DNA of 64,000 nucleotides from Escherichia phage EcNP1: sequence record NC_054910.1; one strand, 5' to 3'. The translations under genes were made by a program, and so were the position numbers. The notes under the pieces were generated by a model, which did not search any database, was not told the DNA's origin, and saw nothing but the letters and a program-made list of their open reading frames with translations. The stretch's first letter is position 1. Each line of letters starts with the position of its first letter. Shown one piece after another: positions 3,125 through 41,855 of this stretch.

Positions 3125-3585
3125 AGAGAGTCTCTTAATAGGTTTAACACATCAATAAATTCAGCTTCGGTTAGTATTGTATCATCTTTTGTTAGACCAC
3201 TAGCCATGCTGTGCTTCAAAACTTTTCCTTTCGAGGCTTGTAATGCATCACGAAAGCCCCTGTTTTGGATCGCTGCTTCAAAATATGCATTTGTGTATAA
3301 TTCTTTCCATGCTGGAGAGTATCTTGAAAATGGAACTCCAAGCCAGAACAACGTGCCACGGTCCTGAGCTCTAGCATAAGCTCGTCCAGCTTTTTGCGCG
3401 TCCAATCCGGACATCCCAAATATACGTCTTTGCTGTTCAACATTTTTCACCTTACATCCTTGGAGGAATCCTTCGAGACCTCCAAATTGGATACCATCCA
3501 TAACGAAAGGCCATTGGGCGAAATTGCTTAATGCACATGATGGCCATCTAAAATTGCTTCTAATCTCTAGCTCAGACATTTTCAA
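3121..3585 (-). CDS. YbiA/DUF1768-like protein (30.3 position)
   Basis: 154 aa; ALSNFAQWPFVMDGIQFGGLEGFLQGCK resembles the YbiA N-glycosidase family signature. Confidence 0.6.
   Translation of the reverse strand: MKMSELEIRSNFRWPSCALSNFAQWPFVMDGIQFGGLEGFLQGCKVKNVEQQRRIFGMSGLDAQKAGRAYARAQDRGTLFWLGVPFSRYSPAWKELYTNAYFEAAIQNRGFRDALQASKGKVLKHSMASGLTKDDTILTEAEFIDVLNLLRDSL
3216..3443 (-). CDS. nested alternative-frame ORF inside 30.3 (30.3'-like)
   Basis: 75-aa ORF fully inside the previous gene in another frame; T4 annotation carries a comparable 30.3' ORF. Confidence 0.35.
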   Translation of the reverse strand: MLNSKDVYLGCPDWTRKKLDELMLELRTVARCSGLEFHFQDTLQHGKNYTQMHILKQRSKTGAFVMHYKPRKEKF

Positions 3586-3778
3586 TACTTATAATTTCAA
3601 CATCAGCCCAATGACCATAGCAAGGAAGACGAAATTCAATTGGCCAGTTAGGGTCCTTTTCTAATATAATAGACTTAACTTGCGGTTCTTCATGTTCATC
3701 GGTATACGGACCTTTATATGTTACTTTATATGTAACCTTAATGTACTGAATTCCAAAAATCTTATTAATTATATTCAT
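3572..3778 (-). CDS. hypothetical protein (68 aa)
   Basis: ORF track; tightly packed same-strand gene string. Confidence 0.5.
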   Translation of the reverse strand: MNIINKIFGIQYIKVTYKVTYKGPYTDEHEEPQVKSIILEKDPNWPIEFRLPCYGHWADVEIISIENV

Positions 3779-37218: not shown

Positions 37219-37368
37219 TTACTGCATGACTGTGATAACTGTCATGATAACACGTTGAATGCCGAACGCAAGAAGACCTCCTGCTACAGCTGGAACAACA
37301 CCTAAACCCGCCAGTAAAATGCCACCGGATACTAATGCAGCGCTTGTAATACCTATGAATGGACTCAT
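37219..37368 (-). CDS. small hydrophobic Gly-rich membrane peptide (49 aa)
   Basis: Read by eye: MSPFIGITSAALVSGGILLAGLGVVPAVAGGLLAFGIQRV...; ATG overlaps gene 52 stop; terminator hairpin right after its stop. Confidence 0.45.
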   Translation of the reverse strand: MSPFIGITSAALVSGGILLAGLGVVPAVAGGLLAFGIQRVIMTVITVMQ

Positions 37369-38693
37369 TTGATTTCCTCTAAATCTTTGGTGTATTCTGT
37401 AACTACATCAGTAGTTTTCCAATATTCGTTTTCTTCTTTCTTAGCTTTAGCTTCTTCAGCAAGTTTCTTTGCTTCGTCGGAAGTCATATGAAAAATATTC
37501 ATTCCGACTAGTTTATCAACATAAGAAGAATACATATCAATTTTAGAAAGTTCTTCGGTCAGTTCTTTGCGAGTTTTACCTTGTACAACAATTTCACCTG
37601 AAATTACTTTCTTAATGAAATGTGCCTTGGCAAAGGCTAAACGAAATGCTGATTCAGTTTCTTTGATTTTGTTATCAATTCGTTTTTGGACATAAGTTTT
37701 ACGAACTTCAACGAAGTCTTTGATTAAATCAACTACGTTATCGTAAACTTGTAGCTTTCCTTTCTCGTTGATGACTGTAATATTTTGGGAACGACGCTCA
37801 ATCAACCCGAAGTCTTTCATGATTTTTGCATGGCGTTCTTCTTCGTTATCACTCAAAGAGTATTCTTTGCGGAATTTAACTTTAAAGCCAAAACCATGCT
37901 CACCACAAGCATCATCCCATGTAATGAAGCCTTTATCTTCAAGCGGGTCTAAGATTTTACTCACATAAGTTTCACGATCATACTTATACGGAATCTCAGT
38001 GATATTCATTTGAGTTCGTGAAGTAAACTTGTACGTTCCACGAATTTCATATTGGCCATCAATTTCAACGACTTCACCACGAAATTCTGGAAATTCTACC
38101 TTCGGTTTAGTTACTTTCTTTCCTTGAAGAGCTTGTAGTACAGCTTTCTTGACAGAAGAAACACTATGAGGAAGAATGTAAGTTGCATAACCAGTTGCAA
38201 TACCGGAAACACCATTAAGAAGAACAGTAGGAATAATAGGCAAATAGAAAGCAGGAGGAATGTGTTCTTTATCTTGATGTACCGGAGCATATTCAGTATC
38301 TTTATATACGTTATAGAAATTTTTACTTACACGAGCAAAAATATAACGACTCGCCGCTGCTTTTTGAACGGTACGAGAACCAAAGTTTCCTTGACCATCT
38401 AACAAAGGAAAGTTATTATTCCAAGTGTTAGCCATCAAAGCCCCCGCATCTTGTGCAGAGTTTTCACCATGATGATATCCAAGGTCAGCTACACCACCTG
38501 CAATAGAAGCAAGTTTGTGAAACTTATCTTTATTTCCTCGCGCCAAATCAAGAGCTCGAGCAATAACAAATCGTTGAACTGGCTTAAATCCATCAATCAT
38601 ATTTGGAATAGCACGATTTTCAACCGTGTACATAGCATAAGCCAGTGCTTCATTATCAATGATACTTTTTAAATCGCGATTATTCAGTTGCAT
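37365..38693 (-). CDS. 52: DNA topoisomerase II medium subunit gp52
   Basis: 442 aa, MQLNNRDLKSIIDNEALAYAMYTVENRAIPNMIDGFKPVQRF; GyrA-like N-terminus; T4 gp52 length. Confidence 0.95.
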   Translation of the reverse strand: MQLNNRDLKSIIDNEALAYAMYTVENRAIPNMIDGFKPVQRFVIARALDLARGNKDKFHKLASIAGGVADLGYHHGENSAQDAGALMANTWNNNFPLLDGQGNFGSRTVQKAAASRYIFARVSKNFYNVYKDTEYAPVHQDKEHIPPAFYLPIIPTVLLNGVSGIATGYATYILPHSVSSVKKAVLQALQGKKVTKPKVEFPEFRGEVVEIDGQYEIRGTYKFTSRTQMNITEIPYKYDRETYVSKILDPLEDKGFITWDDACGEHGFGFKVKFRKEYSLSDNEEERHAKIMKDFGLIERRSQNITVINEKGKLQVYDNVVDLIKDFVEVRKTYVQKRIDNKIKETESAFRLAFAKAHFIKKVISGEIVVQGKTRKELTEELSKIDMYSSYVDKLVGMNIFHMTSDEAKKLAEEAKAKKEENEYWKTTDVVTEYTKDLEEIK

Positions 38694-38697
38694 AAAT

Positions 38698-38838
38698 TTA
38701 CCATACTAGTGAATGTAGTGCCATAATAACATCAGAAATGAAAAGCACGACTTGAATTAATCCGAACATTACTCCATAATATAGCGCTACCAATAAAGTA
38801 GCAAGGGCTAATGAATAGCCCAAGATTTTCTTAATCAT
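38698..38838 (-). CDS. small hydrophobic peptide (46 aa)
   Basis: Read by eye: MIKKILGYSLALATLLVALYYGVMFGLIQVVLFISDVIMALHSLVW; immediately upstream of gene 52. Confidence 0.4.
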   Translation of the reverse strand: MIKKILGYSLALATLLVALYYGVMFGLIQVVLFISDVIMALHSLVW

Positions 38839-38989
38839 TGGTAGATAACAACACAAATGTTAAATATGCACACATACCCTGGGCTAAAGCTTGTGAAAAC
38901 ACACTGCTAGCATCGATACAGATAGTTAAAACACATGCTACTATCCAACAAATAAATGAAATAACTCCTAATAATTTTGCGATATTCAT
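38831..38989 (-). CDS. small hydrophobic peptide (52 aa), possibly ac-like
   Basis: Read by eye: MNIAKLLGVISFICWIVACVLTICIDASSVFSQ...; T4 has the 51-aa membrane protein Ac near here; assignment tentative. Confidence 0.4.
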   Translation of the reverse strand: MNIAKLLGVISFICWIVACVLTICIDASSVFSQALAQGMCAYLTFVLLSTND

Positions 38990-38996
38990 ATTTTCC

Positions 38997-39077
38997 TCAC
39001 TGGCGTCCGAAGACGCCTTTAGTTTTAAGATTGTTACGATAGAACTGCATTACATGTTCGTTATGGAAATTACTCAT
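38997..39077 (-). CDS. stp: Stp peptide (26 aa, activator of host Prr anticodon nuclease)
   Basis: Read by eye: [26 protein letters not shown], matching recalled T4 Stp; ATG overlaps ndd stop. Confidence 0.75.
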
Positions 39078-39532
39078 TAATATGCCTGCAAAACAAATTT
39101 AAAGTTATCAGCCAACATACGATTCATTTCTTCAAGCGTTTGATACTCAGAATGATGATTACGAGTAAACGCTAAAGCTAACTGACCTTTTCCAAATCCC
39201 GTCGTCAGAGGTTTCATCTTAGAAGCAGGTAGATAAAATACCGTGTATGGAACATTGTTATTTGCAATAGTACGCGCAAGCTGAGATCGACGCTGGCGAA
39301 TATGACTTAGAACTGCACTGAATCCTTGCTTAGAACGCTGATTACCTACATAAAATCGCGCAGATACACACGGACTATCAAATGGACCACCAAATTTGCT
39401 TACTAAAAAGTAAAATCCAGGGTTAGACAAAATGTCTTTATGTGGAGTTCCAAAAACCCATTCACCGCCTTTGATTGTACCAATAACAGTTGCGCCTGCA
39501 TTATTCAAATCAGTAACAGTCATATATTTCAT
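39077..39532 (-). CDS. ndd: nucleoid disruption protein Ndd
   Basis: 151 aa, [49 protein letters not shown]; matches T4 Ndd. Confidence 0.9.
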
Positions 39533-39591
39533 GTTATTTTCCTCTAATTATTTTCTACTCCAAGGCCGCATGAATACACACGGCCGATAAA

Positions 39592-39807
39592 TTAATCGTC
39601 GCAGTCGACGCTCAATTCCCAGAACTCTTCTACAGTATAAGTTTTAGTATCATTTTCAATACAGAAACGTTCATTACTGTTATTTGCTAAAGTAGCGTTA
39701 ACTGTCATTTTCTCGCTAGTGCTTTTAAGAGGTGAAATACGAATTAACTGATCACCATTATCTAAACAGAAAATTTCACCGACCTTTACATCTTTAAAAA
39801 TTTTCAT
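39592..39807 (-). CDS. hypothetical protein (71 aa)
   Basis: ORF track; GAGGTGA RBS. Confidence 0.5.
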   Translation of the reverse strand: MKIFKDVKVGEIFCLDNGDQLIRISPLKSTSEKMTVNATLANNSNERFCIENDTKTYTVEEFWELSVDCDD

Positions 39808-39815
39808 AATTCACC

Positions 39816-39923
39816 TCAAGGAGTATAAAATCCAAACGCAGTTGTTGACCATCCCATCCAGTATGGGAAATTTGCACCAATGTAAAACATAAGAATATAA
39901 AACCAAATGCTTAGTAAATTCAT
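39816..39923 (-). CDS. mini hydrophobic peptide (35 aa)
   Basis: Read by eye: MNLLSIWFYILMFYIGANFPYWMGWSTTAFGFYTP; ATG overlaps upstream ORF stop (TAATG). Confidence 0.4.
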   Translation of the reverse strand: MNLLSIWFYILMFYIGANFPYWMGWSTTAFGFYTP

Positions 39924-40120
39924 TATTTTACACCATTCCAAATTGTTTCAACCACAGATTTTAAGCCATTTTGATGAATGTCCATTCCGACAACCGTCAT
40001 CAAATAGATTCCAACCACAACTGAACCCAAGGCGAAAATCAGCCAGAAAATGAATAAAGCTGGAAAAATATTATCGAAAAACCATTCAATAAATGTAAAA
40101 GCACTACGTTTACGCTTCAT
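39923..40120 (-). CDS. small membrane protein (65 aa from internal ATG)
   Basis: Track ORF 39923..40141 trimmed to MKRKRSAFTFIEWFFDNIFPALFIFWLIFALGSVVVGIYL; GAGGAAA RBS. Confidence 0.5.
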   Translation of the reverse strand: MKRKRSAFTFIEWFFDNIFPALFIFWLIFALGSVVVGIYLMTVVGMDIHQNGLKSVVETIWNGVK

Positions 40121-40127
40121 ATTTTCC

Positions 40128-40241
40128 TCACATAAATCCAAAGTAAGCGTTTAATACATCAATCATTAAAACGATTGGGAATATACTCAAAACTACTAGT
40201 ATTATAACTACATTCCATATAGCTTTAACAATCTTTTTCAT
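40128..40241 (-). CDS. mini hydrophobic peptide (37 aa)
   Basis: Read by eye: MKKIVKAIWNVVIILVVLSIFPIVLMIDVLNAYFGFM; GGAGGA RBS; first gene after an early promoter. Confidence 0.4.
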   Translation of the reverse strand: MKKIVKAIWNVVIILVVLSIFPIVLMIDVLNAYFGFM

Positions 40242-40269
40242 TTTCTGTTCCTCCGTAGTTGATAGAGTA

Positions 40270-40299
40270 ATAATACCACAGAGGAACAGTCTTGTAAAC
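40270..40299 (-). promoter_or_regulatory. early promoter in the ndd-denB mini-ORF cluster
   Basis: Minus strand A10 tract, GTTTAC, 17-nt spacer, TGGTATTATTA. Confidence 0.5.
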
Positions 40300-40310
40300 A
40301 ACTTTTTTTT

Positions 40311-40409
40311 TTAAAAATATTCGTAATAAATGTGAATACCAATCACCACTGCCGAAACTTGCGCAACCCACCACGCACAAGCAATAAGTACAGAATTCAA
40401 AATTTTCAT
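40311..40409 (-). CDS. mini hydrophobic peptide (32 aa)
   Basis: Read by eye: MKILNSVLIACAWWVAQVSAVVIGIHIYYEYF; ATGA overlap with upstream mini-ORF. Confidence 0.4.
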   Translation of the reverse strand: MKILNSVLIACAWWVAQVSAVVIGIHIYYEYF

Positions 40410-40492
40410 AATAACCTCATCACAAAAGTAAATGTTAAACAAATTAATGGAATACTAATTAACCAAACGAAACACCACCATAATGAACTCAT
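40406..40492 (-). CDS. mini hydrophobic peptide (28 aa)
   Basis: Read by eye: MSSLWWCFVWLISIPLICLTFTFVMRLL; ATGA overlap with the 90-aa ORF stop. Confidence 0.4.
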   Translation of the reverse strand: MSSLWWCFVWLISIPLICLTFTFVMRLL

Positions 40493-40761
40493 AGTTCAAT
40501 CTCAGCGATTTTCATTTCATTACTATTAATAGCCGCTTTAAGACTATCTGAAAGAATTACATTCCAGTGGTCATTCATATGACCATTAACTAAGCGTGTA
40601 ATTTCTTCGGGAGTTGAAAAATAAGGCGTATCAGACTCCCAGTGCGATAGTCCCAAGCGAGTATAAATCATACCTTCATCATCGATAGAATATTCAACTG
40701 ACACAAACTCATCAGTTATTTTATGTTTAGCGTAATAAAATTTAAATTTCATTTTACTCAA
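40489..40761 (-). CDS. hypothetical protein (90 aa)
   Basis: ORF track; coupled. Confidence 0.55.
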   Translation of the reverse strand: MSKMKFKFYYAKHKITDEFVSVEYSIDDEGMIYTRLGLSHWESDTPYFSTPEEITRLVNGHMNDHWNVILSDSLKAAINSNEMKIAEIEL

Positions 40762-41063
40762 TAATCCGCTAAAAGATCGACAATTGCATCACGAAGACAC
40801 TTATTCGCAATACGTTTAAGAGCAATTTCAGTTTCTGGAGCATTTTGAATAATCATTGAATTCAATTCAGCCTCAGCAAACTGAAGTTCTTTAACTAATT
40901 CAGCTTTATATTTTCCTTGCCCTTTCTTAGCTTTTGCTCGTTTTAATTCAGCTGTAGTAAACATTTTATTCTCCAAATCCGTATCAGTTGATAGTTGTAT
41001 AGTACCACAGTCCTTGTGGTATGTAAACTGTTTTGTGAAAATTTTTAAATGGAAAGATACCAT
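40758..41063 (-). CDS. hypothetical protein (101 aa)
   Basis: ORF track; early promoter upstream. Confidence 0.5.
   Translation of the reverse strand: MVSFHLKIFTKQFTYHKDCGTIQLSTDTDLENKMFTTAELKRAKAKKGQGKYKAELVKELQFAEAELNSMIIQNAPETEIALKRIANKCLRDAIVDLLADY
40990..41019 (-). promoter_or_regulatory. early promoter
   Basis: Minus strand GTTTACA, spacer, TGGTACTATAC; copy of the 37134 cassette. Confidence 0.5.
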
Positions 41064-41602
41064 CCGCTGTAGTTGCTTTTTCTTACAACCTTACGAAGGT
41101 CTTCTCTATCACCGATGAACTTCGGAGTGTACTGGATGACACCTGGATGAATTTCTTTAGTGTTGAATATAATTATACAGTCAGCGACTTGATGATTTAG
41201 AATGGGCCCTAGATTTATTCCAGAACCGTATGGATACTCTCCGCTGCATCCGGTTGTTACCGAAATCCAACGTGAGTCAGTTTGATGTGTTTTGACTTCT
41301 ACACGAAGCCCGCAGTATTTTGGATGCGCCAGTACATCCCACGCATATGTATACGGGTCATTAACATCCTCTTGGCCTTTGTTAACATACCCGCTTAGCC
41401 AATCTGCTACAAAAAACTCTGCGTACACCGCGATACGGCATCTTTCGATAACTTCTGCTTTATCCTGATTTGGATTTTGTTTTAAAGAGTATCTTGCTGT
41501 ATCAGCAATTTTGACCTTCATTTCACTAGTCAAGTCACTGTTCGATAGGGTAAATGTCGGAATCTGAAATAGTCTCTGTAAACCCGGATTCGTTTTCTGC
41601 AT
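41045..41602 (-). CDS. denB: endonuclease IV
   Basis: 185 aa (T4 EndoIV length), MQKTNPGLQRLFQIPTFTLSNSDLTSEMKVKIADTARY; position between ndd cluster and rIIB. Confidence 0.8.
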   Translation of the reverse strand: MQKTNPGLQRLFQIPTFTLSNSDLTSEMKVKIADTARYSLKQNPNQDKAEVIERCRIAVYAEFFVADWLSGYVNKGQEDVNDPYTYAWDVLAHPKYCGLRVEVKTHQTDSRWISVTTGCSGEYPYGSGINLGPILNHQVADCIIIFNTKEIHPGVIQYTPKFIGDREDLRKVVRKSNYSGWYLSI

Positions 41603-41855
41603 TTAGACTTTCCTTTTTACCGCTGAGATAAGCGTTATATACTTTAAGAGTACCATAATAAATTCTGTCATTTTCATCTAAAGACTCACGGTCGAGTTCC
41701 TTTTTATCCATGACTATAACATCATTACAGTAAAGAAACCCAAGTTTTTCGTGACCAAACTCAAATTTATTGCAGTACACAATATTAGCGTGATGATTTC
41801 CGTGTAGATTAATCTCTTTTATGTCGGAATCACCGATATTCATACAATAAATCAT
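41535..41855 (-). CDS. hypothetical protein (106 aa)
   Basis: ORF track; 3' end overlaps denB start by 68 nt in another frame. Confidence 0.45.
   Translation of the reverse strand: MIYCMNIGDSDIKEINLHGNHHANIVYCNKFEFGHEKLGFLYCNDVIVMDKKELDRESLDENDRIYYGTLKVYNAYLSGKKESLNAENESGFTETISDSDIYPIEQ

Follow-up and report, generated by a model that had tools for sequence, protein, structure and literature searches.

Five conserved early genes between denB and ndd of a T4-like phage encode predicted inner-membrane peptides

The five mini-ORFs between denB and ndd in Escherichia phage EcNP1 (NC_054910.1) are genuine conserved early genes of T4-like phage, as indicated by purifying selection, families that extend across genera, assignment to PHROG and Pfam entries, and early transcription in T4. 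Their predicted products are very probably single-pass peptides of the inner membrane. The genes are already known: T4 annotation has included ndd.2-ndd.6 for decades and gives their products predicted membrane locations. We consider the chances roughly even that they are T4-type accessory early genes making inner-membrane microproteins, each putatively binding a host envelope component. Their accessory status is indicated by the variable length of the denB-ndd interval (285 to 2317 bp between relatives), by peptide content that is patchy across genera, and by their non-essentiality in T4.

Gene Identity and Organization

The window (the whole stretch of 64,000 nucleotides that was analyzed) belongs to Tequatrovirus and shares 99.8% identity with phage Nami. 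On the minus strand of the window, positions 39816-40492 hold five consecutive ORFs (p28, p32, p37, p65, and p35, each named for its length in aa); all have exactly the limits given in the sequence-only reading. By sequence, they are the orthologues of T4 ndd.6, ndd.5, ndd.4, ndd.3 plus ndd.2a, and ndd.2, respectively. Amino acid identity to the T4 products is 96% for p28, 97% for p32, 92% for p37, 95% for p65 (residues 2-65), and 94% for p35. From denB to ndd, the genes keep the order and strand seen in the T4 and Nami maps and also in 20 Tequatrovirus loci, with relatives' loci delimited for comparison by denB and ndd as anchors. An earlier placement of the ORFs beside stp, ndd, and denB agrees with the annotated maps, in which the block sits among early host-takeover genes.

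Further genes flank the block on the same strand. A 68-aa ORF (p68; 40758..40964, minus strand; phrog_4535) is the first gene after the second early promoter and is absent from T4. It is followed by an ORF for a soluble 87-aa protein (p87; 40489..40752, minus strand; phrog_2390), whose TGA overlaps the p28 start. This ORF is missing from T4 and T2, where an 8-codon remnant leader is kept. On the other side, the next gene of the chain is ndd.1 (39592..39807, minus strand), which encodes a soluble, acidic protein of 71 aa and starts 8 nt beyond p35. The T4 ndd.1 protein has been detected by proteomics and is early.

All five peptides match PHROG HMMs end to end over their full length (E 3e-17 to 8e-30). 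The ndd.6 orthologue p28 (MSSLWWCFVWLISIPLICLTFTFVMRLL; 40406..40492, minus strand; phrog_8851, E 3e-17) is present in 492 phage records by tblastn, and its family shares the motif WCxxWxxxIP across genera. The ndd.5 orthologue p32 (MKILNSVLIACAWWVAQVSAVVIGIHIYYEYF; 40311..40409, minus strand; phrog_5011, E 4e-26) is also present in 492 records by tblastn and was found in Tequatrovirus only. The ndd.4 orthologue p37 (MKKIVKAIWNVVIILVVLSIFPIVLMIDVLNAYFGFM; 40128..40241, minus strand; phrog_3098, E 3e-21) was found by tblastn in 594 phage records, some of them from other genera (55-61% identity), and D28 is invariant in its family. A single-sequence phmmer search with p37 against 1.84 billion representatives returned only 6 clusters, and therefore no wider family. 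The ndd.2 orthologue p35 (MNLLSIWFYILMFYIGANFPYWMGWSTTAFGFYTP; 39816..39923, minus strand; phrog_4135, E 3e-23) is present in 499 records by tblastn and has the cross-genus motif GxNxxYWxG; it has zero charged residues, and 34% of its residues are aromatic.

The fifth gene, p65 (39923..40120, minus strand; phrog_2401), encodes a protein with a basic N-terminus (KRKR), a long transmembrane (TM) helix, and the conserved C-terminal motif GLKSVVExIWNG. Residues 6-63 match Pfam DUF7248 (PF23906) on model positions 4-57/58, with 65.2 bits (gathering cut-off 27 bits) and E 5e-18. The p65 family comprises 148 protein clusters; the 120 listed all carry PF23906 and are 59-88 aa long, and among the matches listed every named one is from T4-like phage. 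An AF2 model has a helix at residues 10-51, a kink at G52, and a second helix at 53-63 (mean pLDDT 74). Pfam gave no match for p28, p32, p37, or p35, and an NCBIfam search of the peptides yielded nothing meaningful. Literature searching by the names ndd.2-ndd.6 found no phage paper, and no paper in the literature searched mentions DUF7248, PF23906, or any of these PHROG identifiers.

In the T4 reference (X75802/AF158101), one G is absent at codon 3 of this 65-aa gene, and the gene is split into "ndd.3" and "ndd.2a." The extra G is present in nine other T4-named records, and the T4 frameshift is probably an error of the reference sequence. T4 ndd.3 and ndd.2a would thus be a single 65-aa DUF7248 gene, which corrects a persistent annotation artifact. 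The labels "periplasmic protein" and "outer membrane protein" are propagated guesses. The former, which comes from the truncated T4 ndd.2a, misfits the full-length protein because of its N-terminal TM anchor.

Junctions, Ribosome-Binding Sites, and Promoters

Start and stop codons are closely chained along the block. The ATG of p28 lies on the p87 TGA in an ATGA overlap, p28 and p32 also overlap by ATGA, and p65 and p35 overlap by TAATG. A 7-nt spacer (TGAGGAAAATATG) separates p37 from p65, and an 8-nt spacer lies between p35 and ndd.1. Between p32 and p37 there is a 69-nt gap, and these two genes are uncoupled because a sigma-70/T4-early-type promoter lies inside it. The ORFs had been described as mostly overlapping, which is mildly overstated: of the four internal junctions, two are overlaps (ATGA, TAATG), and the others are the 7-nt spacer and the 69-nt gap. 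Similarly, a ribosome-binding site (RBS) had been assigned to each ORF. Good Shine-Dalgarno sequences precede p32 (GAGGT), p37 (GGAGG), and p65 (GAGGA), but those of p28 and p35 are weak, and these two genes probably rely on start/stop overlap. The (A/T)TGA overlap at the start of the p28 family is kept across genera, as is the chained start/stop architecture. That T4 and T2 still keep an 8-codon leader in place of the lost p87 gene indirectly suggests that downstream translation may depend on upstream translation.

The T4-type early promoter before p37 (40270..40312, minus strand) consists of an A10 tract, GTTTACA (-35), a 17-nt spacer with TG, and TATTAT (-10), and p37 is the first gene behind it. 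Positions 40298-40270 are the top promoter-like match in the region (10/12 with TG). The T4 record X75802 marks a promoter and a -10 signal within the stretch before p37. In most of the aligned related loci, GTTTACA-N16-17-TAnnnT lies upstream of the p37-family gene, with a degenerate -35 in a few. A second T4-type early promoter (40999..41027, minus strand; TTTACA-17-TACTAT with TG) lies downstream of denB. The minus strand carries two early transcription units (PE, early promoter): PE-p68-p87-p28-p32 and PE-p37-p65-p35-ndd.1-ndd. A structured RNA in place of coding sequence was also considered and was rejected, as an Rfam search of both strands of 38600-41700 found no family at E up to 1.

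Conservation and Selection

Each peptide is present at full length in 492-594 phage records (tblastn). The pooled pN/pS of the annotated frame is 0.12; the two alternative sense frames give 1.24 and 1.84. Within Tequatrovirus, pN/pS is 0.08 for p32, 0.09 for p65, and 0.10 for p35; for p37 there was no purifying-selection signal within this genus (pN/pS 1.37, from 7 variable sites only). Across genera, dN/dS is 0.18-0.30 with conserved motifs, and the value for p37 is 0.18. A low pN/pS (0.16) is also obtained for the antisense frame with the same wobble positions; the strand was therefore assigned from the promoters, RBSs, start/stop structure, and flanking genes.

For four of the five peptides, syntenic counterparts that retain the motifs occur in distant T4-like genera, and family motifs persist between genera while synonymous sites are saturated. 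Conservation in T-even relatives had been proposed as a check on the ORFs; the T4 orthologues are 92-97% identical in amino acid sequence, and intact frames predominate. Frame-disrupting indels in close relatives had been named as evidence that would count against the genes. A few exist, in p65 of T2, in p35 of JEP6 and ECO4, and in p28 of one IMG/VR contig, but they are rare (approximately 4 per 100 sampled ORF instances).

These data bear on whether the peptides are functionless, with their translation merely protecting the early polycistronic mRNA or feeding ribosomes to ndd.1 and ndd. The tight coupling architecture along the chain, the dispensability of the genes in T4, and the occasional frameshifts in relatives would all fit such a role. 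However, selection acts at the amino acid level (pN/pS 0.08-0.10 for p32, p65, and p35, and 0.12 pooled), and motifs are kept despite saturated synonymous sites. Sequences such as GLKSVVExIWNG or WCxxWxxxIP would be unexpected in a spacer ORF, and we regard the absence of function as highly improbable.

Membrane Character of the Peptides

Hydropathy was scored as the best 19-residue Kyte-Doolittle mean, with at least 1.6 as the TM criterion. The best window reaches 2.31 in p28, 2.18 in p32, 3.05 in p37, and 2.56 in p65, and K/R residues cluster N-terminally in p37 and p65. The best window of p35 is only 1.43, under the usual TM threshold, and this peptide may lie at the membrane interface or form a weak TM segment. 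The description of all five ORFs as dominated by one hydrophobic helix thus holds for four of them, which have a classic single TM segment, but not clearly for p35. In this AT-rich DNA, 11% of six-frame ATG ORFs of 25-70 aa reach 2.0 by chance; it is conservation, not hydropathy, that gives the five ORFs their more-than-chance status. Comparison of the five peptides with one another and with the ac and 52.1 products, for signs of paralogy, gave only weak, composition-level matches (best E 0.005).

Peptides of this kind could be toxins that disturb the membrane in the manner of type I toxins or pinholins, depolarizing or permeabilizing the inner membrane early and contributing to host shut-off. 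The size of 28-37 aa and the extreme hydrophobicity recall Hok, TisB, Ibs, and Ldr. The p28 family also always lies behind the stop codon of another ORF and in most genera has no strong RBS of its own, which would limit production of a toxic peptide. However, Pfam and NCBIfam gave no homology to a known toxin family, and Rfam placed no antitoxin RNA nearby. Family-specific motifs favor specific interactions over generic membrane damage, T4 requires an energized membrane in early infection, and CRISPRi knock-down had no phenotype. Toxicity is, in our judgment, distinctly unlikely. Identity as a holin or pinholin was rejected separately on the basis of the early promoters, the early T4 transcripts, the denB and ndd flanks, and the lack of an endolysin.

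Expression, Dispensability, and Lipid Phenotype in T4

Transcripts of ndd.2-ndd.6 were classed as early by RNA-seq of T4, which is a different phage from that of the window (PMC9697503 Table S2). T4 proteomics lists the ndd.2-ndd.6 peptides as undetected; this is expected for tiny hydrophobic peptides and gives translation no support. CRISPRi-ART knock-down in T4 showed no fitness effect of ndd.2-ndd.6 in laboratory hosts. In the HIDEN-SEQ transposon screen of T4, all of ndd.2-ndd.6 are non-essential in laboratory hosts, no ndd gene is among the conditionally essential hits of the main text, and one conditional table gives log2FC of -0.27 to +0.48 with q = 1. The T4 deletion mutants saΔ9 and CiPGr T4_583L likewise show that ndd.2-ndd.6 are not required in laboratory hosts. 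Modulation of host membrane proteins, suggested earlier from the sequence alone, is a candidate role that these screens and mutants do not support.

Genes of this type may act in exclusion or counter-defense, either by blocking the entry of superinfecting DNA, as T4 Imm does, or by neutralizing membrane-embedded abortive-infection or defense systems, as RIIA/RIIB do against RexAB. Early expression in T4, the predicted membrane location, and the adjoining rIIB, stp, and denB are consistent with this role. So are the dispensability of the genes in K-12 and B laboratory hosts and their patchy distribution across genera, in an interval that is a cassette-insertion hotspot typical of arms-race genes. 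On the other hand, amino acid conservation of at least 90% over approximately 490 genomes is above that of most arms-race genes. PADLOC detected no reproducible similarity to any defense component. HIDEN-SEQ also names no ndd gene among its main-text hits, and in one of its conditional tables q = 1. We consider a role of this type unlikely. A likeness of p37 to Kiwa KwaA (E 0.0085, 13.8 bits) was set aside as compositional; none of eight divergent family members and neither of two scrambled or reversed controls matched.

The 52-rIIB deletion saΔ9, which removes the ndd block, abolishes T4 stimulation of phospholipid synthesis (PMC6071114). Loss of ndd, denB, ac, or 52.1 within the same deletion could also cause this phenotype. 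The neighboring ac encodes a membrane peptide that confers acridine resistance (PMC6071114).

Proposed Role and Significance

We favor the proposal of accessory early microproteins that bind host envelope components. In the first minutes of infection, the chains would be translated through coupling or ribosome re-initiation, and the resulting microproteins would insert into the inner membrane of the host with a single pass. By the positive-inside rule, p32, p37, and p65 would be oriented N-in/C-out, and p65 would present its conserved amphipathic GLKSVVExIWNG helix at the periplasmic face. Each peptide may then bind a host envelope component, which could be a protein of the inner membrane or the machinery of phospholipid synthesis. 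Such binding would tune the envelope for infection, with a benefit visible only in natural hosts or conditions and not in laboratory strains.

One or more of the microproteins may be the saΔ9 determinant, that is, the factor whose loss removes the stimulation of phosphatidylglycerol and phospholipid synthesis, by directly binding a host inner-membrane enzyme of phospholipid synthesis or envelope homeostasis. We give this more specific idea only a slim chance; the widely conserved p37/ndd.4 and the DUF7248 protein p65 are its best candidates. If true, they would be the first peptides encoded by a phage that regulate lipid metabolism in the host.

T4, the best-studied lytic phage, carries this conserved block of early genes for predicted membrane peptides. 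Approximately 490-590 sequenced phages carry ndd.x genes nearly unchanged, and the genes must therefore pay their way in nature. Finding a target would explain how T4, as observed decades ago, uses genes of the 52-rIIB interval to reprogram phospholipid synthesis in its host, and it would add phage members to the small-membrane-protein class of regulators. The motifs of each family are now defined, along with the conserved promoter and the conserved layout of coupled genes, and can be used to guide mutagenesis.

Comparison With Known Systems

T4 ndd.2-ndd.6 (NC_000866, T4p270-T4p275) are the same genes in the same order, strand, and position, with the same predicted-membrane annotation. The window differs in that its 65-aa gene is intact, in place of the separate ndd.3 and ndd.2a of the T4 reference, and it retains two upstream genes (68 and 87 aa) that are lost from T4. 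In addition, the p37 start corresponds to the second ATG of the T4 annotation, and p35 is one residue shorter, with a TAATG overlap with p65 where T4 has ATGA.

T4 Ac (51 aa) and gp52.1 resemble the ndd.x products in their early region, strand, similar size, and single hydrophobic helix, and their genes are co-deleted in saΔ9. Sequence similarity is unconvincing, the best match being 52.1 with a p37-family member (E 0.005 in a tiny database). Unlike the ndd.x genes, ac has a mapped phenotype.

The type I toxins Hok, TisB, Ibs, and Ldr are alike in size and hydrophobicity, but the ndd.x genes lie inside early phage operons, lack an antisense RNA family in Rfam, and share no homology with them. 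AcrZ, MgtS, MgrB, and KdpF are single-pass peptides of 30-50 aa that tune larger inner-membrane proteins by binding them. The ndd.x peptides may resemble them in this respect; no homology between the two groups was found, and the bacterial regulators are host-encoded and stress-regulated. Gp11 of Staphylococcus aureus phage ΦNM1 is an early small membrane protein that binds the host membrane-associated proteins MurG and DivIC (PMC11237401). It inhibits growth when expressed and is unrelated to ndd.x in sequence, host, and phage family, but it provides a precedent for the proposed mode of action.

Results

Identity of the locus and annotation of T4 orthologues

The window derives from a Tequatrovirus; a 1.3-kb stretch of it shares 99.8% identity with phage vB_EcoM_Nami and 90-98% with approximately 490 further T4-like genomes. 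Five consecutive mini-ORFs, named here by length in amino acids, were found on the minus strand exactly where the sequence-only reading had placed them: p28 (40406-40492), p32 (40311-40409), p37 (40128-40241), p65 (39923-40120), and p35 (39816-39923). Annotated maps of Nami and T4 give the one-strand order 52, 52.1, ac, stp, ndd, ndd.1, ndd.2...ndd.6, denB, denB.1, rIIB. The mini-ORFs are orthologous to T4 ndd.6 (p28), ndd.5 (p32), ndd.4 (p37), ndd.3+ndd.2a (p65), and ndd.2 (p35), with 92-97% amino acid identity. All five peptides match PHROG families end to end (E 3e-17 to 8e-30), and p65 belongs to Pfam DUF7248 (65 bits; cut-off, 27). The cluster is therefore a rediscovery: these genes, with predicted membrane locations, have been in the annotation since the T4 genome project.

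The T4 reference (L002, NC_000866) annotates, at 3436-3629, ndd.3 (26 aa) and ndd.2a (40 aa) as separate, overlapping ORFs, corresponding to the single 65-aa gene at window 39923-40120 (minus strand). In the window and in a later T4 assembly the sequence is ATGAAGCGTAAACG; the reference has ATGAACGTAAACGC and thus lacks one G at codon 3. This G is absent only from the three records of original-sequence descent (X75802, AF158101, and NC_000866); in the alignment, the nine other T4-named records have 402 bases compared to 401 in the reference. One of the nine, OZ209057, is annotated with an intact 65-aa CDS, and RB59 likewise has a single 65-aa DUF7248 gene. Therefore, ndd.3 and ndd.2a are most probably an artefact, and the missing G is probably an original sequencing error passed into RefSeq. 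The "periplasmic protein" label carried by hundreds of genomes stems from this split annotation and fits only the truncated C-terminal half of p65. Public records also give the mini-ORFs and ndd.1 implausible names ("naphthalene 1,2-dioxygenase," "chaperone for long tail fiber formation," "outer membrane protein," and, in a note, similarity to a "dNMP kinase" entry), which are propagated annotation errors. Annotation of denB is inconsistent: several genomes (Nami, JEP6, G2133, and others) split it into a 477-nt CDS and a separate 330-nt upstream ORF, T4 denB is 558 nt, and the 185-aa ORF is complete in the window (41045-41602, minus strand; compared with L001 3044-3520).

Conservation and selection

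Of the ATG-initiated ORFs 25-70 aa long in all six frames of this AT-rich DNA, 11% have a Kyte-Doolittle mean of 2.0 or more over 19 residues, so hydrophobicity alone is weak evidence; whether these are real genes is decided by conservation. Full-length, single-frame tblastn matches, nearly all at 90% identity or above, were found in 492 phage records for p28, 492 for p32, 594 for p37, 493 for p65, and 499 for p35. Frame-disrupting indels in relatives, named by the sequence-only reading as grounds for rejecting the ORFs, proved few. A detailed reading of 20 Tequatrovirus loci showed the ORFs intact almost everywhere; the exceptions are a truncated p65 in one T2 record and a frameshifted p35 in JEP6 and ECO4, and one IMG/VR contig has a frameshift near the end of p28.

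In 19 aligned Tequatrovirus sequences, pN/pS was 0.08 for p32, 0.09 for p65, 0.10 for p35, and 0.31 for p28, comparable with ndd.1 (0.09); the p37 value of 1.37 comes from only seven variable sites. Pooled across all five ORFs, pN/pS was 0.12 in the annotated frame and 1.24 and 1.84 in the other two sense frames. As expected, the antisense frame sharing wobble positions was also low (0.16), so strand was assigned from promoters, RBSs, and flanking genes. Functionless peptides, with translation serving only the operon, are very improbable because the amino acid sequence is under selection.

More distant T4-like phages (ndd 46-66% identical) have a denB-ndd interval of 285 to 2317 bp, also with recognizable small hydrophobic homologues. 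Between genera, synonymous sites are saturated (pS 0.63-0.74), and dN/dS is 0.18-0.30. Family motifs are MSSKxWCxIWxxxIPxIC (p28), MKKLLKAIWN...IFPxVxMID with an invariant Asp (p37), and GxNxPYWxG (p35); the p65 family has a basic N-terminus, a TM segment, and a nearly invariant GLKSVVExIWNG. We detected p32 in Tequatrovirus only. A p65-family profile search returned 148 protein clusters, with DUF7248 in 120 of the 120 listed; the named clusters among those listed all belong to T4-like phages of Escherichia, Klebsiella, Enterobacter, or Serratia. Searching 1.84 billion representatives with p37 as a single sequence returned only six clusters. A weak PADLOC match of p37 to Kiwa KwaA was dismissed because no other p37-family member tested reproduced it.

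The denB-ndd interval is a cassette-insertion hotspot. In the distant IMG/VR contig 2974754850_000001 (L035 402-1759), an insertion of approximately 1.4 kb lies between a gene like p68 (the 68-aa ORF between denB and p28) and the p37-family promoter, just upstream of the latter; it encodes a 190-aa protein and an N6-adenine DNA methyltransferase of the D12 class (Pfam E 1e-17). The 87-aa gene preceding p28 (40489-40752, minus strand; phrog_2390, labeled DUF5376 in one record) is sharply mosaic or fast-evolving within a conserved block, with alleles only 52-55% identical to that of the window while flanking mini-ORFs are at least 93% identical.

Transcription and translational coupling

The ORFs had been described as mostly overlapping and each preceded by an RBS, two slight overstatements in a description that is otherwise right. 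Overlaps occur at p28/p32 (ATGA) and p65/p35 (TAATG), and the p28 ATG overlaps the TGA of the 87-aa ORF (ATGA), but p37 and p65 are separated by a 7-nt spacer (TGAGGAAAATATG), and the p32/p37 junction is an uncoupled 69-nt gap containing a promoter. Strong Shine-Dalgarno sites precede p32, p37, and p65; those of p28 and p35 are weak, and these two would depend on start/stop overlaps. Gene ndd.1 begins 8 nt after p35. A GC-rich hairpin without a T-run (GGCCGTGTGTATTCATGCGGCC; 39548-39590, minus strand) lies in the 59-nt ndd.1-ndd gap; it had no Rfam match and may serve as an attenuator or in RNA processing or stability.

The promoter in the p32/p37 gap (A10 tract, GTTTACA, 17 nt with TG, TATTAT) is the best sigma-70-like match of the region. 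Most of the related loci aligned have a GTTTACA-N16-17-TAnnnT early promoter directly upstream of the p37-family gene, with a degenerate -35 in a few, and T4 record X75802 has a promoter annotated there. A second such promoter is at 41027-40999, downstream of denB. During T4 infection, transcripts of ndd.2-ndd.6 fall into the early class (PMC9697503 Table S2). The proteins were undetected (PMC9697503 Table S2), which is uninformative because the peptides have almost no tryptic sites. The five ORFs are real early genes.

Start/stop overlaps are kept between genera. The p28-family start lies on (A/T)TGA at the stop of whichever ORF precedes it, even with a TTG start codon. T4 lacks both the 68-aa and 87-aa genes (window 40489-40964, minus strand; L002 3998-4103), and T2 (L040) and PP01 lack the 87-aa gene, yet all three keep an 8-codon remnant leader with its own start, MKI(A/V)EIEL, and in each the leader TGA overlaps the ndd.6 ATG. 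The retained remnant suggests selection to keep translational coupling, and from it we infer that coupling would matter for p28 expression.

Predicted protein anatomy

The proposal that the mini-ORFs encode membrane peptides agrees with a single segment well above the TM threshold in p28, p32, p37, and p65 (Kyte-Doolittle 2.2-3.1); p35, which is uncharged and 34% aromatic, is borderline (1.43). Insertion into the membrane and topology are sequence-based predictions. N-terminal Lys/Arg clusters occur in p37 (K2, K3, K6) and p65 (KRKR), and p32 has one Lys (K2) at its N-terminus, with an acidic residue close to the C-terminus. The positive-inside rule would place p32, p37, and p65 N-in/C-out. 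An AlphaFold2 model of p65 (22 family sequences; mean pLDDT 74, TM part 83-93) has helices at 10-51 and 53-63 with a break at invariant G52. Conservation is highest in the predicted extracytoplasmic tail, not in the TM segment, which points to a putative specific partner at the periplasmic face. Membrane-damaging, toxin-like peptides are an alternative that we consider improbable.

Immediately past ndd are three further small hydrophobic ORFs: motA.1 (49 aa; 37219-37368), 52.1 (46 aa; 38698-38838), and ac (52 aa, acridine resistance; 38831-38989), all on the minus strand. With the five mini-ORFs, these make eight predicted membrane mini-proteins within approximately 3.3 kb. For the 52.1 protein, a search of a tiny database gave a weak match to a distant member of the p37 family (37% over 40 aa, E 0.005).

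Discussion

The T4 orthologues were covered by two deletion mutants and two genome-wide screens. The saΔ9 deletion removes approximately 3.4 kb between 52 and rIIB, including 52.1, ac, stp, ndd, ndd.1-ndd.6, and denB; phage yield is about half that of wild type, and post-infection stimulation of phospholipid synthesis, notably phosphatidylglycerol, is abolished in saΔ9 as a whole (Kutter et al., PMC6071114). The CiPGr genome-reduced mutant T4_583L has a near-normal burst (109 vs 120; PMC9825161). In its record (MZ375356, L049 220-351), we found ndd.4 deleted and the ndd.5 N-terminus fused in frame to the C-terminus of p65 (MKILNSVLIACAWWVAQVSAVVGMDIHQNGLKSVVETIWNGVK), joined at a short shared "AVV/VVG" stretch. 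CRISPRi-ART found no fitness effect for ndd.2-ndd.6 (PMC11879866), and HIDEN-SEQ scored all as non-essential and named none among its conditionally essential genes. These results mark ndd.2-ndd.6 as accessory genes in a plastic region.

The best-supported reading, for which we judge the case evenly balanced, is that these are early, chain-translated, single-pass inner-membrane microproteins acting at the host envelope. The mini-ORF chains would be translated early in infection, their products would insert into the host inner membrane, and they would act there during the first minutes of infection, putatively by binding host membrane components. Exclusion or anti-defence factors are an unlikely alternative, though less so than toxin-like peptides. 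A precedent for the proposed envelope action is ΦNM1 Gp11, a small, early-expressed membrane protein with MurG and DivIC as binding partners (PMC11237401); it has no homology to the ndd.x peptides.
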